Shown here piece by piece: positions 6,422 to 11,749 of a stretch of DNA of 64,000 nt. The position numbers and the translations under genes were made by a program. Position 1 is the stretch's first letter, and every line of letters begins with the position of its first letter. The stretch comes from a virus (lineage: Duplodnaviria > Heunggongvirae > Uroviricota > Caudoviricetes). The stretch lies in IMG/VR virus record IMGVR_UViG_3300050821_018098. The stretch is one strand, 5' to 3'. The notes beneath the pieces were generated by a model, which did no database searches, had not been told where the DNA came from, and saw nothing but the letters and a program-made list of their open reading frames with translations.

Positions 6422-6934
6422 TTATGCATCAAAACCTTTAAATATTGTGGCCAGATTAATGTTATTAAATTCTGGATGCTCTGTGATCTCCATTACGATA
6501 TTATCTCTTAAAAGGGCTGGAATCTCAAAACTATGATCGATTGAAGGAAGTTCTATTTCTGCTATAATTAATGTAACATTACGGAATACATCAATTTCCC
6601 ATATTAAATCTCCTGTTTCAGGGAATTTAAATTTATGTCTGCTTTTAGTAATATAAGTTGAAGCCTCTTTATAAAGATTTTCAAATTCTTCTGAAGTTAT
6701 TTCTTTTTCATTTTCCTCTCTTACTCCAGGACTAACATCTTTCTTTTCTGTATAGGTAAAAACAACTTTAGAATCATCCATAGAACTTTCTTCTCTTACT
6801 CTACGAGATATACCTTCATCACTGGATAAATAAAATTGAAGTATATTTGTTGAATCAACATAGAATTCTTTAGAGGCTGGGTCAAGACTTTTAAGTAAAA
6901 ATTTTCTTTCTATTTCGATACCATTTTTATTCAT
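6422..6934 (-). CDS. CYTH-domain (triphosphate tunnel metalloenzyme) protein
   Basis: IEIERKFLL (ExExK) N-terminal motif, R.RVR, WEIDVF, IIAEIEL, EFNNINLA. Confidence 0.88.
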   Translation of the reverse strand: MNKNGIEIERKFLLKSLDPASKEFYVDSTNILQFYLSSDEGISRRVREESSMDDSKVVFTYTEKKDVSPGVREENEKEITSEEFENLYKEASTYITKSRHKFKFPETGDLIWEIDVFRNVTLIIAEIELPSIDHSFEIPALLRDNIVMEITEHPEFNNINLATIFKGFDA

Positions 6935-7001: not shown

Positions 7002-7083
7002 TAGCGGTAGAGGGACTCGAACCCTCCGTAGTAAACCTGGCTCCTTATGAGGAAGCTCCGATGCCATCTCCGGTCATACCGCT
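7002..7083 (-). tRNA. tRNA-Met/Ile2 (CAU), atypical 13-nt variable region
   Basis: Acceptor AGCGGTA/TACCGCT, anticodon arm GCTTC-CTCATAA-GGAGC, T arm GAGGG-TTCGAGT-CCCTC; D stem only CCG/CGG. Confidence 0.8.
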
Positions 7084-7182: not shown

Positions 7183-7220
7183 AAAAAAACCCGACCAACT
7201 ATAAAAGTTGACCGGGTTTT
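7183..7220 (-). terminator. attenuator terminator upstream of the tRNA-Gln/Met pair
   Basis: Minus-strand RNA ACCCGGUCAACU-uuuau-AGUUGGUCGGGU-UUUUUU; 12 bp including two G-U pairs that form only on the minus strand. Confidence 0.85.
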
Positions 7221-7242
7221 AATATTTTTGTTATTTCAAATA

Positions 7243-7314
7243 TTAAGCAAAACTTTCCCAGTCAACCATTGGTTGTTGCTGAGCCTGCATATTATTTGAA
7301 ATTAATTTTTTCAT
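7243..7314 (-). CDS. leader peptide MKKLISNNMQAQQQPMVDWESFA
   Basis: 23-codon ORF read by hand; Gln/Met block ATG CAG GCT CAG CAA CAA CCA ATG; lies directly before the terminator and tRNA-Gln/Met; TATATAA motif 13 nt upstream. Confidence 0.8.
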   Translation of the reverse strand: MKKLISNNMQAQQQPMVDWESFA

Positions 7315-7572
7315 CTTAGATTATATATCAGAAAATTTCTGTTTGTTTTAGCAAAATTAGTAATTTATTTCATTTTATCAAAATATTCTTTAAATAATAT
7401 TCACGCATTTTATCGAATCCATCAATTAAAGTATTCCAGGAATGAATAAGTTCAAAGTTTATTTTCTCATTTACTATAGAAGGAATATACTTAAAATCTA
7501 TATTAGACCAATTATCACCTAAGAAGTATTGAAAGCATTCTTCATCAAACTTATTTCTTACAAACTGATATC

Positions 7573-8856
7573 TCATACTTTAATCTTTTGATCTTTGATT
7601 TTACTATAGATGACTTCCATTATCATACCAATCTGAGCATGATCTACGATATCATCTTTGAATAGGTCTTTTAGTTGTTTAAATTCAACGTAAGTACGTT
7701 CTGTTTCTTCGGTCACACCAAACACCTTTCCTTTGACAGACTTCTTTATATCAGCTAAATCATCATCAGATAGCTCAAGACCAAATAGAGCGTTCTTATG
7801 TATTGATAAAGTAGAAACTAACTGTCTTCTTCCAAAGAATTCTAAATCATATGGTTCAACAGTTAAACCAGTTTCTTCTTTTATCTCTTTAACTATTATT
7901 TCCTGAGGATCTTTACTTGAGAAACTAGAACCACCTGGATTTTCGTAAACATAAATATCTCCATTATTTACTGGAGATCTGAATTCCTTAACAAGAACAA
8001 TATCACTGTTCCACATATCTTCTTGATCAATATGATACATTACTACTGAAGATAAATTGAATCTGGATAGAATTATTTCATTATCTTTATACCGGTCCTC
8101 AGCTTTTATCCATACTTTAACCCACATAGACCATAAGAATAGAATATTTTTATCTGGCCCAACATAATACTTCCATAATACATTTGCATCATGAAGTTCA
8201 TCACCGGCTTTCTCTTGATTTTTATACCATTCAATAAATGTGTCAGAATTCCAAATATCCAAGGGTACAAATCTCTCAGCACCTGTTCTTTTAAATGTAT
8301 ATTTATCTTTCTTTAAAAGTTCTTTATATTTATCAATAACATATTGAAGAGTATTTTCGAGAGTTTTAAAGGCTGGTATATTGTATTTCTCAGCATAAAA
8401 TTCTTGATACCTTACTTTCTCAGCATCTTTAGGACATCCAAGTACAAGTTTTTCTGGAGCCTGACCTTTCCAATAACCCCATTCATCGTTGGTAGTGAAT
8501 CCTGGAAGTTTAACTAAATCTCTTGGTATCCAAAAAAGGATTACATCAGCTATTCTCAAACCTTCTTCTTCCCATTCAATCTGATCCTCATATTCATTTT
8601 TAAATTCACCACTTGAATCTTCCGGAATAAGAACAGCACCAGTAAATCCTTTTTTCTTAAGATATTCTACAGCTTCAGATCTCCAGGATTTAGGTGTTTT
8701 TTTATTTTCTTCAGATCTATAAGTAGGACCAGCAAGAAATACAGTGAATTCAGTTGTTTTAGGTAATTCCTGGTTACTGTAATATACTTTTAATTTTCCA
8801 GAACTATTATCTTCATTAATACTTTGATAAGTATCAGATTTTTTGAAATACTTCAT
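7573..8856 (-). CDS. nucleoside 2-deoxyribosyltransferase-like domain fused to a Nudix hydrolase
   Basis: N-terminal VFLAGPT..SWR..A, QIEWEEEGL..ADVILFWIPR..LPGFTTNDEWG; C-terminal Nudix box PGGS..QEIIVKEIKEETGL. Confidence 0.8.
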   Translation of the reverse strand: MKYFKKSDTYQSINEDNSSGKLKVYYSNQELPKTTEFTVFLAGPTYRSEENKKTPKSWRSEAVEYLKKKGFTGAVLIPEDSSGEFKNEYEDQIEWEEEGLRIADVILFWIPRDLVKLPGFTTNDEWGYWKGQAPEKLVLGCPKDAEKVRYQEFYAEKYNIPAFKTLENTLQYVIDKYKELLKKDKYTFKRTGAERFVPLDIWNSDTFIEWYKNQEKAGDELHDANVLWKYYVGPDKNILFLWSMWVKVWIKAEDRYKDNEIILSRFNLSSVVMYHIDQEDMWNSDIVLVKEFRSPVNNGDIYVYENPGGSSFSSKDPQEIIVKEIKEETGLTVEPYDLEFFGRRQLVSTLSIHKNALFGLELSDDDLADIKKSVKGKVFGVTEETERTYVEFKQLKDLFKDDIVDHAQIGMIMEVIYSKIKDQKIKV

Positions 8857-9686: not shown

Positions 9687-9901
9687 AATTAATATATAAT
9701 AGAAATAATATTTTTTATGATTAAATTTAGAATAAAGAGTATACTGATGATATCAGCAATTTTGGTTATTGCTTTAGCTTTAATATTTCTAATACATATT
9801 TTTAGTCTTCCACCTATATTAGTAGGTGTAGTTTTTATATTTACTTTTGTTGCAGTAATATTTAACGAAAGTATATTTAAAATAAATATTAAAGAATAAA
9901 T

Positions 9902-9933
9902 TTTGGTTATATGAAAACTTTCTACTACTTTTG
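9902..9933 (+). promoter_or_regulatory. Bacteroidota-type housekeeping promoter (-33 TTTG / -7 TAnnTTTG)
   Basis: TTTG 9902-9905, 20-nt spacer, TACTTTTG 9926-9933; similar sites at 12847-12877, 25782-25811 and 49446-49476. Confidence 0.6.
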
Positions 9934-9987
9934 ACGTATCAATACAAAAGGAAGATATTTGTCTTCATATATAAGTTAAGAAAAACA

Positions 9988-10086
9988 ATGAACTTGAACA
10001 ATAACATATCTACAACCACTACGAATAGATGGCATCGTCGTACAAGAACCTCTCAAGGGTTGCTTAGTGGTCATGGTATGTTGTAA
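9988..10086 (+). CDS. leader peptide MNLNNNISTTTTNRWHRRTRTSQGLLSGHGML
   Basis: 32-codon ORF read by hand; Thr run plus AGA TGG CAT CGT CGT ACA AGA (10027-10047); followed by a terminator and five tRNAs; TATATAA at 9968. Confidence 0.82.
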   Translation: MNLNNNISTTTTNRWHRRTRTSQGLLSGHGML

Positions 10087-10113
10087 TTTCTAGTTCTAAA
10101 GATAAAGGAATTC

Positions 10114-10159
10114 AAAATCCGCCTCGAAGCATAAAACCTTCGAGGCGGATTTTTGTTTA
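10114..10159 (+). terminator. attenuator terminator upstream of the His/Trp/Arg/Arg/Thr tRNA operon
   Basis: AAAATCCGCCTCGAAG-cataaaac-CTTCGAGGCGGATTTT then TGTTT; ends a few nt before tRNA-His. Confidence 0.88.
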
Positions 10160-10162
10160 TAT

Positions 10163-10234
10163 GGTGTCATTAGTTTAGTGGTAGAATTTAGGTTTGTGGA
10201 GCCTAAGACCAGGGTTCGATTCCCGATGACACCC
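10163..10234 (+). tRNA. tRNA-His (GUG) with encoded G-1
   Basis: GGTGTCAT/ATGACACC, anticodon arm TAGGT-TTGTGGA-GCCTA, T loop TTCGATT. Confidence 0.9.
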
Positions 10235-10238
10235 AAAT

Positions 10239-10317
10239 ACAGCAGCTGGCATTGGCGAGCCGAGCATTCTCCAAAAGTGTGTCGAAAGACTTGTAGATCC
10301 GACTTCTACCTGCTGTG
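10239..10317 (+). tRNA. tRNA-Trp (CCA) with class II-like variable arm
   Basis: ACAGCAG/CTGCTGT acceptor, GGC/GCC D stem, GCATT-CTCCAAA-AGTGT, variable hairpin GTC-GAAA-GAC, T arm GTAGA-TCCGACT-TCTAC. Confidence 0.8.
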
Positions 10318-10324
10318 CAAAAAT

Positions 10325-10397
10325 ATTCCTGTAGTTCAATTGGATAGAACAAATTACTACGGATAATTAGATAAAGGTTCGAGTCCTTTCGGGAATA
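10325..10397 (+). tRNA. tRNA-Arg (ACG)
   Basis: ATTCCTG/CGGGAAT, AATTA-CTACGGA-TAATT, AAAGG-TTCGAGT-CCTTT. Confidence 0.93.
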
Positions 10398-10406
10398 CAA
10401 AAATAT

Positions 10407-10480
10407 TATCTTGTAGCTCAATTGAATAGAGCGATTGCCTTCTAAGCAGTAGGTTGCAGGTTTGAATCCTGCCAAGGTAA
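10407..10480 (+). tRNA. tRNA-Arg (UCU)
   Basis: TATCTTG/CAAGGTA, ATTGC-CTTCTAA-GCAGT, GCAGG-TTTGAAT-CCTGC. Confidence 0.92.
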
Positions 10481-10485
10481 CAAAT

Positions 10486-10558
10486 TCCGGAGTAGCTCAA
10501 TTGATGGAGCATCTGACTTGTAATCAGAAGGTTGAGGGTTTGATCCCCTTCTCCGGAT
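10486..10558 (+). tRNA. tRNA-Thr (UGU)
   Basis: TCCGGAG/CTCCGGA, TCTGA-CTTGTAA-TCAGA, GAGGG-TTTGATC-CCCTT. Confidence 0.93.
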
Positions 10559-10573
10559 CAAACGTATATAACT

Positions 10574-11749
10574 ATGAAAATAAATATCAACATATTAAAA
10601 GAAATTCCTAAGAACTTTGGTTCTGGATTATGTGTATATGGTAAACCTAGTGAAGAAGTTTCTTCATGGATAAACTATCACAATTTTGAAACCGAGTTAT
10701 CTGGAAGCTTCACTAATATAATAATACCAGAAGATTTAGATATTAATACAGCTTTTTACATTAACGAGCAGTATGAGTATATTGATGGGATTAGTCCAAA
10801 TCTCAATAAGTATACTCATTTAGGACATATATCTAACTTTGTATTAGCTAAAACTTTTCAAAAACTTGGTATAGGAAAACAATTTATCGCTAACCTCGGT
10901 GATACTTTGGAGGGTAATGTTAAAAAAGAAGATGCTTTAAAAGTTTATCAGGAAATATGTAACACTTTCGATTACAAAATTGATAAAATATTCTTTGCTT
11001 CTGAATTAGAATATACTGGTGAACTTTTAGAAAACGGACAAGGTGAATATGAAGGCACTAAAATATTTAACATAAATGATAAGAAATTGGTCGGAATTAA
11101 AAGTAATGGGGCTACATCATATTTTTATCAGGATGTAGCCCTGGCCTCTATACTAAACAGTAAAACTTTATACATGACAGGTTTGGAACAAGGTGAGCAT
11201 TTTAAATCTTTGAAAATATTATTTCCAAATGTTGAACATCTACCTCTTGGTTTAGTTATGGTAAAAGGCGAGAAAATGTCTTCTCGTTTAGGTAATGTGA
11301 TCTTATTTTCTGAGATCATAGATATGTTCAAAGAGAAATTTGGTGATAATGATAAGCTTGTATGGAATGTATTAGCAGGTTATATTTTAAAATCTATTCC
11401 TGGAACCAATAAAAACATTGATTTGGATCAATTGGATAATGTTAAGATGTCAGCCGGTTTATATTTGAGCTATACGTTGGCTAAATTAAAAAGTGCTGGA
11501 TTAGTTGTAAATGATATATCTGATTTCAATTCAGTTTTCTTAAAAATAAAAACATTGAAAGCAAAGAATAGTTTATCACCAAATATATTGTTTGAAGCTT
11601 TAGTGGAACAGGCTAAAAAGATAAGTGGTTTGTATGAGTTATATCAAATAAAAGGAAACGACGATAATCAAAAAATGTTCAACCCCTTGGCTGAGGACTT
11701 ATTATTTGGTATGAAACTATTAGGTCTTTATGATATAGACAAGGTGTAA
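10574..11749 (+). CDS. argS: compact arginyl-tRNA synthetase
   Basis: SPNLNKYTHLGH (HIGH), GLEQGEHF, KMSSRLGNVI (KMSKS), GLYLSYTLAKLKS anticodon-domain motif; directly follows two tRNA-Arg genes. Confidence 0.85.
   Translation: MKININILKEIPKNFGSGLCVYGKPSEEVSSWINYHNFETELSGSFTNIIIPEDLDINTAFYINEQYEYIDGISPNLNKYTHLGHISNFVLAKTFQKLGIGKQFIANLGDTLEGNVKKEDALKVYQEICNTFDYKIDKIFFASELEYTGELLENGQGEYEGTKIFNINDKKLVGIKSNGATSYFYQDVALASILNSKTLYMTGLEQGEHFKSLKILFPNVEHLPLGLVMVKGEKMSSRLGNVILFSEIIDMFKEKFGDNDKLVWNVLAGYILKSIPGTNKNIDLDQLDNVKMSAGLYLSYTLAKLKSAGLVVNDISDFNSVFLKIKTLKAKNSLSPNILFEALVEQAKKISGLYELYQIKGNDDNQKMFNPLAEDLLFGMKLLGLYDIDKV

Follow-up and report, generated by a model that had tools for sequence, protein, structure and literature searches.

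A putative leader-peptide attenuator in front of a tRNA operon of a huge phage

The 64-kb stretch of viral DNA analyzed here (from IMG/VR record IMGVR_UViG_3300050821_018098; hereafter the window) carries on its plus strand, starting at position 9988, a short open reading frame (ORF), a hairpin and a run of transfer RNA (tRNA) genes, together called the His/Arg/Thr unit. Very probably, this unit is a ribosome-mediated (leader-peptide) transcription attenuator that controls the phage tRNA operon behind it. It combines an ORF whose codons match the anticodons encoded downstream with an intrinsic terminator and alternative RNA pairings, and throughout a family of such units in related huge phages the leader co-varies with the tRNA set. 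To our knowledge, leader-peptide attenuation is described for amino-acid biosynthesis operons and for pheST, and not for tRNA genes. No account of attenuated tRNA genes was found in the literature searched, most subscription journals lying outside that search.

The leader ORF spans positions 9988-10086 (ATG at 9988, TAA at 10084-10086) and consists of 32 codons, MNLNNNISTTTTNRWHRRTRTSQGLLSGHGML, followed by the stop; it is the longest ATG ORF according to the fixed rule given below. Two stretches of codons are candidate sensors, and both were found where the original prediction had placed them: a Thr run, ACA ACC ACT ACG (10012-10023), which overlaps segment 1 of the RNA structure (ACCACTA, 10015-10021), and a seven-codon block, AGA TGG CAT CGT CGT ACA AGA (R W H R R T R; 10027-10047). 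The block had been described as fully matched to the downstream tRNAs. All seven codons can indeed be read by the five anticodons, but the match depends on accepting the Trp-like gene described below. Codons cognate to these five anticodons make up 9.1% of the codons in the 49 long ORFs of the window, and seven of them in a row have a chance of about 5e-8 per position. Across the six frames of the window, no cognate run exceeds the one at 10027, and no other 7-codon stretch there covers all five tRNA species. CGT, which accounts for 0.49% of the codons in the long ORFs, occurs twice in the block; the leader as a whole has 2 AGA and 2 CGT codons, and both Arg tRNAs (UCU and ACG) are encoded downstream. 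Trp and His are each represented by a single codon in the block, with a second CAT further downstream. The cognate-codon content of the leader is 0.29 in frame vs 0.10 in each of the other frames.

The leader also contains five Asn codons although no tRNA-Asn follows, a caveat that had been raised before. The observation stands, but it is explained by an Asn-rich N-terminus, MK(T)xNN, which is common to the leaders of the family irrespective of their tRNAs (MKNLNNIS, for example, heads an Ile/Gly/Met unit). There is no Shine-Dalgarno sequence at the leader, and the predicted 5' untranslated region is very short. A longer leader starting from a TTG at 9931 was rejected, as this start lies upstream of the promoter-like motif and misfits the N-terminus of the family.

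Four of the five tRNA genes expected after the terminator are solid, being called by both ARAGORN (run in tRNA-only mode) and Rfam: tRNA-His(GUG) at 10163-10234 (50.3 bits in Rfam), tRNA-Arg(ACG) at 10325-10398 (61.7 bits), tRNA-Arg(UCU) at 10407-10481 (63.8 bits) and tRNA-Thr(UGU) at 10486-10559 (64.4 bits), all on the plus strand. The fifth, previously put down as tRNA-Trp(CCA), is a non-canonical candidate that appears only at a relaxed ARAGORN threshold (-ps90), as an 80-nucleotide (nt) tRNA-Trp(cca) at 10239-10318 on the plus strand. Its cloverleaf-like sequence has CCA as anticodon and TCCGACT as T-loop; the D arm is weak, and the variable hairpin is long. Indirect support comes from its position, exactly filling the 90-nt gap between tRNA-His and tRNA-Arg, from the TGG codon in the leader and from a second odd CCA gene in the related phage LR756504.

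The intrinsic terminator (segments 3:4; 10114-10158, plus strand) reads AAAATCCGCCTCGAAG, loop CATAAAAC, CTTCGAGGCGGATTTT, then TGTTT. Its stem (10114-10153) starts 27 nt after the leader stop codon and has 16 bp, including 8 G-C pairs, with a stability of -25.6 kcal/mol; the T run TTTTTGTTT follows. The terminator ends 10 nt before tRNA-His and therefore leaves no room for a separate promoter. The minimum free energy (MFE) fold of 9960-10160 has -58.9 kcal/mol (z = -5.8 vs shuffles). It contains a 1:2 hairpin across the leader (10001-10084), in which 10001-10010 pairs with 10075-10084 and 10015-10021 with 10065-10071, the latter being the ACCACTA:TAGTGGT helix originally seen by eye. This hairpin sequesters segment 2 (10061-10077), the candidate 5' strand of the antiterminator.

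Segment 2 can alternatively pair with 10117-10131, spanning nearly the whole 5' arm of the terminator. The interrupted helix that had been suspected here thus exists, with 12 pairs and, once loop bases are included, -9.8 kcal/mol. It forms in folds in which ribosomes are taken to occupy the RNA up to about 10060, and a small nested hairpin juxtaposes its two strands. Folding with masked ribosomes, proposed as a check of the original prediction, gave a divided answer: placing the ribosome on the Thr run makes the antiterminator the MFE structure as long as the 3' arm of the terminator has not been transcribed, but the 1:2 helices stay closed if it is placed on the 7-codon block. The distance from segment 2 to the end of the stop codon is 21-26 nt in this unit. 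By geometry only, a ribosome at the leader stop overlaps segment 2, in agreement with the classical model, where termination is favoured by a ribosome that does not stall.

These elements suggest the following course of events. Transcription would probably start at a phage promoter ~10-20 nt before the leader ATG, and a ribosome would translate the 32-codon leader while RNA polymerase proceeds. With charged Thr, Arg (AGA, CGU), Trp and His tRNAs plentiful, the ribosome would reach the stop codon at 10084 and cover part of segment 2 there, or the 1:2 hairpin would re-form after its release; the 16-bp terminator could then form, and transcription would end 10 nt before tRNA-His. If any sampled tRNA is scarce, the ribosome would linger on the Thr run or on the R-W-H-R-R-T-R block, break the ACCACUA:UAGUGGU pairing and free segment 2 for the 5' arm of the terminator. 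Read-through would then deliver tRNA-His, the Trp-like gene, tRNA-Arg(ACG), tRNA-Arg(UCU), tRNA-Thr(UGU) and a gene resembling arginyl-tRNA synthetase (ArgRS). Slow decoding would thus cause antitermination and yield more tRNAs, and fast decoding would restore termination; since the new tRNAs would relieve the stall, the circuit would amount to a negative feedback that supplies decoding capacity on demand. The unit had been pictured as an OR gate over five tRNA species. Such logic may apply, but since the block has only one Trp and one His codon, an additive effect of delays at the individual codons is no less plausible than a strict OR.

The source of the window is a 166.9-kb virus record with an estimated completeness of 29% (CheckV), which implies a phage genome of several hundred kilobases. 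The window encodes a T4-type Gp23 capsid protein, and its closest DNA matches are two uncultured phages of ~635 kb each. DNA matches to the window led to the relatives LR756504 (45 tRNAs) and LR745206 (61 tRNAs); a third relative, G003, was reached via the capsid protein and is 597 kb long and 98% complete, with five tRNA clusters (17 Rfam matches, 18 ARAGORN calls). Only these three near-complete or large genomes were informative. At none of 29 loci related by the major capsid protein does a tRNA lie closer than 10 kb to the capsid gene, seven incomplete records of relatives contain zero tRNAs, and pattern scans of viral and metagenome contigs with the ArgRS-like protein returned no close relatives.

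A fixed rule was applied to four huge phages, comprising the window, G003, LR756504 and LR745206. To count as a unit, a hairpin had to have 7 bp or more, a T run behind it and a tRNA on the same strand no more than 60 nt downstream; the leader was defined as the longest ATG ORF ending 5-60 nt before this hairpin. This procedure revealed 16 units with the order short ORF, terminator and tRNA run; four further ones were recognized by eye, where a tRNA-like gene missed by ARAGORN directly follows the terminator. All 16 have a short ORF with start and stop before the terminator, and the distance from stop to terminator is 17-39 nt. The same pipeline found no unit in 37 control loci with 69 tRNAs; the tRNA-bearing ones among them came from unrelated phages, picked by a generic tRNA D-arm word in viral contigs, and mostly hold a single tRNA. 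Below, W01 denotes the relative LR756504 and L-numbers denote loci from relatives or homologue contigs.

The leaders of the family differ in line with the tRNAs they precede. MKTIAMIIRMRIIRPKMLG stands before tRNAs for Arg, Ile and Met, MKTVNTNIAIVEIAVIGGAEEGV... before Glu, Ala, Ile, Val, Gly and Glu, MTTTQQIQQQQINQTD before three Gln tRNAs, ...HTTFKKSFKWFNHMF... before Trp, Phe, His and Lys, MKTINNTSSSSRRS... before Ser, Arg and Ser, and MKTMNLNTINNLNTLTVVNNTLCIRLTC... before Val, Leu, Ile, Leu, Arg, Asn, Cys and Thr. The tRNAs of the His/Arg/Thr unit are grouped differently in G003, where we found the sets Trp/Phe/His/Lys and Ser/Arg(acg)/Ser, and Arg(tct) together with Thr(tgt) within an eight-tRNA cluster. 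The attenuator reading was checked on such homologues: rather than keeping one leader while the tRNA content changes, units with a different tRNA grouping have a leader that differs to match, in every case.

Across the 16 units, the fraction of leader residues matching the downstream tRNA set is 0.39, compared with 0.175 +/- 0.028 for shuffled pairings, and none of 200,000 shuffles reached the observed value. Permutation within genomes ranked the true pairing best in all four (1/2, 1/24, 1/24 and 1/720). Cognate-codon content is 0.32 in frame vs 0.11 and 0.09 in the other two frames, and the match favours the reading frame in 16/16 units, as expected if a ribosome, rather than RNA pairing, does the sensing. 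To some extent the choice of codon follows the isoacceptors as well. Units with Arg(tct) only use AGA for 6/6 Arg codons, those with Arg(acg) only use CGN for 3/4, and Ile(gat) units use ATT where Ile(tat) units use ATA.

The structural part of the device is likewise a property of the family. Over the 16 units, segment 2 is more complementary to the terminator's 5' arm than dinucleotide shuffles are, with a Stouffer z of -12, and the partition-function occupancy of the terminator arm across the family has a z of 5.8. In 16/16 units, segment 2 falls inside the leader ORF towards its 3' end, 6-48 nt upstream of the last base of the stop codon.

A second unit of the window, on the minus strand and with a Gln/Met leader, is a textbook case of an attenuator. 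Its leader side (7243-7329) consists of the motif GATATATAA (7329-7321) and the leader ORF MKKLISNNMQAQQQPMVDWESFA (7314-7243), within which the sensor block ATG CAG GCT CAG CAA CAA CCA ATG occupies 7290-7267. The switch (7186-7267) is formed by segment 2, GGTTGACTGGG (7267-7257; also written GGUUGACUGGG), which is complementary to the 5' arm CCCGGTCAACT of a terminator at 7220-7186. The 2:3 helix has 11 bp and -18.7 kcal/mol, compared with -7.0 +/- 2.0 in shuffles, and 0/300 shuffles were as good. Downstream follow tRNA-Gln(UUG) at 7170-7095, called by ARAGORN and Rfam, and a tRNA with a long variable arm at 7083-7002 (37.5 bits in Rfam), whose CAU anticodon was assigned by eye.

A natural codon swap was observed in the homologue contig L095, in which the leader MKIVKMIIRMRRIRPKMFG and a terminator precede tRNA(UCU), Ile(GAU), Arg(ACG), an ArgRS-like gene and Met(CAU). 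The leader unit is 83% identical to one in LR756504 (W01), and the sensor block has a single difference, AGA CGT ATT AGA in L095 vs AGA ATT ATT AGA in W01. Only the copy with CGT has a tRNA-Arg(ACG) downstream of the attenuator. Between the two copies, segment 2 (GUUUGGGU vs GCUUGGGU), the 5' arm (ACCCAAAC vs ACCCAAGC) and the 3' arm change together (U/C, A/G and U/C), a three-way co-change that supports both the 2:3 and the 3:4 pairings.

The same data bear on the signal that such a device would read. It might respond to a general slowing of translation, be it by amino-acid starvation, ribosome-targeting stress or host shut-off, with the codon match tuning sensitivity only. An attenuator cannot separate a missing from an uncharged tRNA, as is established for the trp and his leaders, the synthetase-like genes in some units would suit a response to badly charged tRNAs no less than one to scarce tRNAs, and single Trp and His codons are weak specific sensors. 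We nevertheless regard this alternative as unlikely: amino-acid sensing by itself hardly accounts for the tracking of isoacceptors at codon level (AGA vs CGN, ATT vs ATA, and the ATT-to-CGT swap), and extra tRNA would be useless in amino-acid starvation.

Several points weigh against a tRNA-sensing attenuator at the His/Arg/Thr unit. Leader translation, stalling, regulated read-through and feedback are steps that we infer from the sequence, and the whole scheme depends on a tight enough coupling of transcription and translation in the host. The antiterminator is the weakest of the 16 units. Its occupancy of the terminator arm, 8.9/12 nt vs 6.4 +/- 2.1 in shuffles, corresponds to p of about 0.1, and with the core terminator arm only the best duplex has -4.8 kcal/mol (z = +1.6), no better than shuffles. 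The expectation that it would be weaker than its counterpart at the Gln/Met locus was therefore borne out, as duplex and occupancy are indistinguishable from shuffles here and the helix reaches -18.7 kcal/mol there. With a ribosome on the 7-codon block, the masked fold leaves the 1:2 helices closed around it. We consider a helix closing round a ribosome sterically unrealistic, which is an argument of ours and not a computed result; the masked folding is an equilibrium calculation that permits such helices, so it does not decide the block stall.

Further objections concern the codons and the genes they are meant to serve. A block with one Trp and one His codon is a weak sensor by classical standards, and 3/6 Thr codons of the leader (ACC, ACT and ACC) are not read by UGU under strict wobble rules. 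The CCA gene at 10239-10318 was not called by ARAGORN at default settings, only at 90% of the threshold, nor by the Rfam tRNA model even at E <= 10, and its fold is no more stable than that of shuffles (z = -0.62). Finally, units of different genomes are partly orthologous and hence do not represent 16 independent observations.

Given a weak 2:3 helix and a very strong terminator (-25.6 kcal/mol), one might suppose that the leader is translated but the hairpin is unconditional, acting as a partial terminator, a processing site or a stabilizing 3' end with a fixed fraction of read-through, and that the small ORF has some other role. Three observations would then lack an explanation: the agreement of leader composition with the tRNA set in each genome, the family-wide complementarity of segment 2 to the terminator arm, and the covariation of segment 2 and both arms between L095 and W01. 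We judge this reading very unlikely. A mere coincidence, in which an ordinary terminator of the upstream gene meets a chance ORF, is extremely improbable: AT-rich spacers often contain short ORFs, and there is nothing unusual in a basic peptide like RWHRRTR, but the idea is already contradicted by the block, rare by chance and unique in the window, by the frame specificity and by the permutation results, and the second unit, the relatives with their 14 units and the lack of any unit in unrelated phages speak against it as well. Direct tRNA sensing as in a T-box, with codon-like triplets pairing to anticodons in the absence of a ribosome, is hardly credible either; the triplets could pair with the anticodons encoded downstream, but they lie in frame in a start-stop ORF in 16/16 units, the match is lost in the other frames, there is no T-box among the Rfam matches at E <= 10 in 9900-10600, and we know of no T-box that reads many specifiers in a row.

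Ribosome-mediated attenuation is also favoured by comparison with known systems. Enterobacteria have multivalent attenuators, namely thrL (Thr and Ile codons), ilvL of ilvGMEDA (Leu, Val and Ile codons) and ivbL. Like these, the phage units have a short leader with codons for several amino acids, translated there and predicted to be so in the phage, alternative 1:2, 2:3 and 3:4 pairings, an intrinsic terminator before the regulated genes and a leader stop near segment 2. This anatomy, matching that of a classical attenuator, supports the attenuator reading. Unlike them, the phage element would regulate tRNA and synthetase-like genes instead of biosynthetic enzymes; as the regulated genes are tRNAs, the sensed molecules would be of the same kind as the products. 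Moreover, phage leaders sample up to seven or eight amino acids, with two Arg isoacceptors addressed separately (AGA and CGT), and the leader studied here lacks a Shine-Dalgarno sequence and has a very short 5' untranslated region.

The pheM leader of E. coli pheST resembles the unit in placing a leader rich in cognate codons before a gene of the decoding apparatus, the phage version having four Arg codons and an ArgRS-like gene. However, pheM senses one amino acid and controls a synthetase only, whereas in the phage unit the tRNA genes come first and five species are sampled. The Rfam model of hisL (RF00514) aligns to 10032-10155, sharing the layout of three hairpins and a terminator. With 28.6 bits vs a gathering threshold of 49, the element is not a member of this family, and its leader has no run of His codons; the match had E = 0.015 in a 701-nt search and did not appear when the whole window was searched at gathering thresholds. 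T-box riboswitches likewise place genes for aminoacylation and decoding under control of tRNA status by a terminator-antiterminator switch, but they bind tRNA directly and need no translation, whereas the phage signal depends on the reading frame.

Should the proposed attenuation hold more widely, huge phages may, as a tentative generalization, run tRNA genes and matching synthetase genes as feedback-controlled supply modules, in which the leader is a written list of the codons served. Phage tRNAs would then not be constitutive; decoding speed would be measured codon by codon, the two Arg isoacceptors would be monitored separately and only tRNAs in short supply would be topped up. If particular host tRNAs were lost during infection, for instance to an anticodon-nuclease defence or to decay, a phage equipped in this way could sense the loss and make up for precisely the missing species. 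Phage tRNA carriage, so far a matter of codon-usage statistics, would become a question about a testable regulatory circuit, and the units would represent compact natural multi-input sensors of tRNA availability. Leaders would also provide an independent key to the decoding by non-canonical tRNAs, with TGG assigning the long-arm CCA gene and ATG the long-arm CAU gene, and thereby a simple rule to predict which tRNA-like genes are functional and what each reads.

The gene that follows tRNA-Thr in the presumed operon encodes a compact ArgRS-like protein of 391 amino acids (10574-11749, plus strand). It starts 15 nt after tRNA-Thr, and no plus-strand terminator was found between 10560 and 11750, for which reasons it probably belongs to the same attenuated transcript. 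The ORF scores 40 bits with the argS model TIGR00456 (cut-off 262) and has only a weak class I match in Pfam; the protein carries an HLGH and a KMSSR motif. It has at least 454 homologues of ~390 amino acids, many with PF00750 and named arginyl-tRNA synthetase by the Joint Genome Institute, on contigs as long as 727 kb. Eight homologue contexts were viewed, most of which lack adjacent tRNAs; a unit of leader, terminator and tRNAs lies beside the homologue in L095 only, and L093 has tRNAs nearby and no unit. ArgRS-like genes within units are those of the window and of L095.

Other synthetase genes were noticed in tRNA regions of LR756504.1. A class II synthetase of the Asp/Lys/Asn type (tRNA-synt_2, 240 bits; L044:549-1685, minus strand) lies among Lys tRNAs behind a KKKK leader, and a synthetase of the Gly/His/Pro/Ser/Thr type (tRNA-synt_2b and HGTP anticodon domain; L039:2116-3276, minus strand) directly follows tRNA-Thr. 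The neighbouring tRNAs, Lys and Thr, look cognate to the respective enzymes. Together with the ArgRS-like genes, such apparently cognate synthetase genes within units count in favour of the attenuator reading. L044 additionally has an HNH endonuclease ORF (2081-2941) inside the tRNA region. In one of the ArgRS contexts (L098:1570-2500), an SmpB gene is followed by 500 nt free of called genes and then by the ArgRS gene; this stretch could hold a transfer-messenger RNA.

Upstream of the leader, a promoter-like motif at 9944-9975 (plus strand) consists of ACAAAAGGAAG, an 11-nt spacer and CATATATAAG, and ends 12 nt before the ATG. A motif of the form AAAAGG(G)A(A)G-N10-12-TAATATATA(C/A) precedes 14/16 leaders in the four genomes. 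The window contains about 20 copies of its (G/C/T)ATATATAA part, most of them immediately 5' of gene starts, and both leaders of the window are preceded by the (G/C)ATATATAA motif. It looks like a general phage promoter and resembles the late promoter of T4; its promoter function is a prediction. A second conserved motif, ATCTATATTTGTA, was seen ~60-90 nt 5' of the leader ATG in L050, L052 and L053. It contains TAnnTTTG, which we take to be the -7 element of Bacteroidota promoters, and its location 5' of the phage-type motif points to promoters arranged in tandem and to a host among the Bacteroidota.

Some tRNA-Met(CAT) genes head their own transcription unit, either alone (L051:600-670) or followed by tRNA-Tyr (L030:623-700). 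They have a promoter-like motif directly upstream and neither leader nor terminator, an arrangement that fits an initiator tRNA, which stalling in elongation could not sense. Attenuators in series were also observed: inside a tRNA operon, a second leader and terminator appear with no promoter motif of their own (L053:1438-1552; L039, minus strand), for example MTTTQQIQQQQINQTD before three Gln tRNAs, downstream of a Pro/Asp unit. If functional, this arrangement would give nested control.

Long variable arms occur on many tRNAs of the clade with anticodons other than those of Leu, Ser and Tyr (L039, L044, L050 and L052), the sizes being 84-89 nt for Lys(ttt), 87-88 nt for Asn(gtt), 88 nt for Thr(tgt) and 90 nt for Arg(tct). 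The CCA gene (10239-10318, plus strand) and the CAU gene (7002-7083, minus strand) of the window share this long-arm body plan, with anticodon identities that are predicted. The odd CCA gene of LR756504.1 (L042:1918-1998), called by neither ARAGORN nor Rfam, has a CTCCAAA anticodon loop, a good T arm, no recognizable D arm and an insertion after the anticodon arm. It sits between a terminator and tRNA-His/Phe, behind the Trp-containing leader MKNLTNIFWHFHFK.... Between the two tRNA units of the window, finally, we noted genes for a fusion of a nucleoside 2-deoxyribosyltransferase-like and a NUDIX domain (7573-8856, minus strand) and for a CYTH-domain protein (6422-6934, minus strand).

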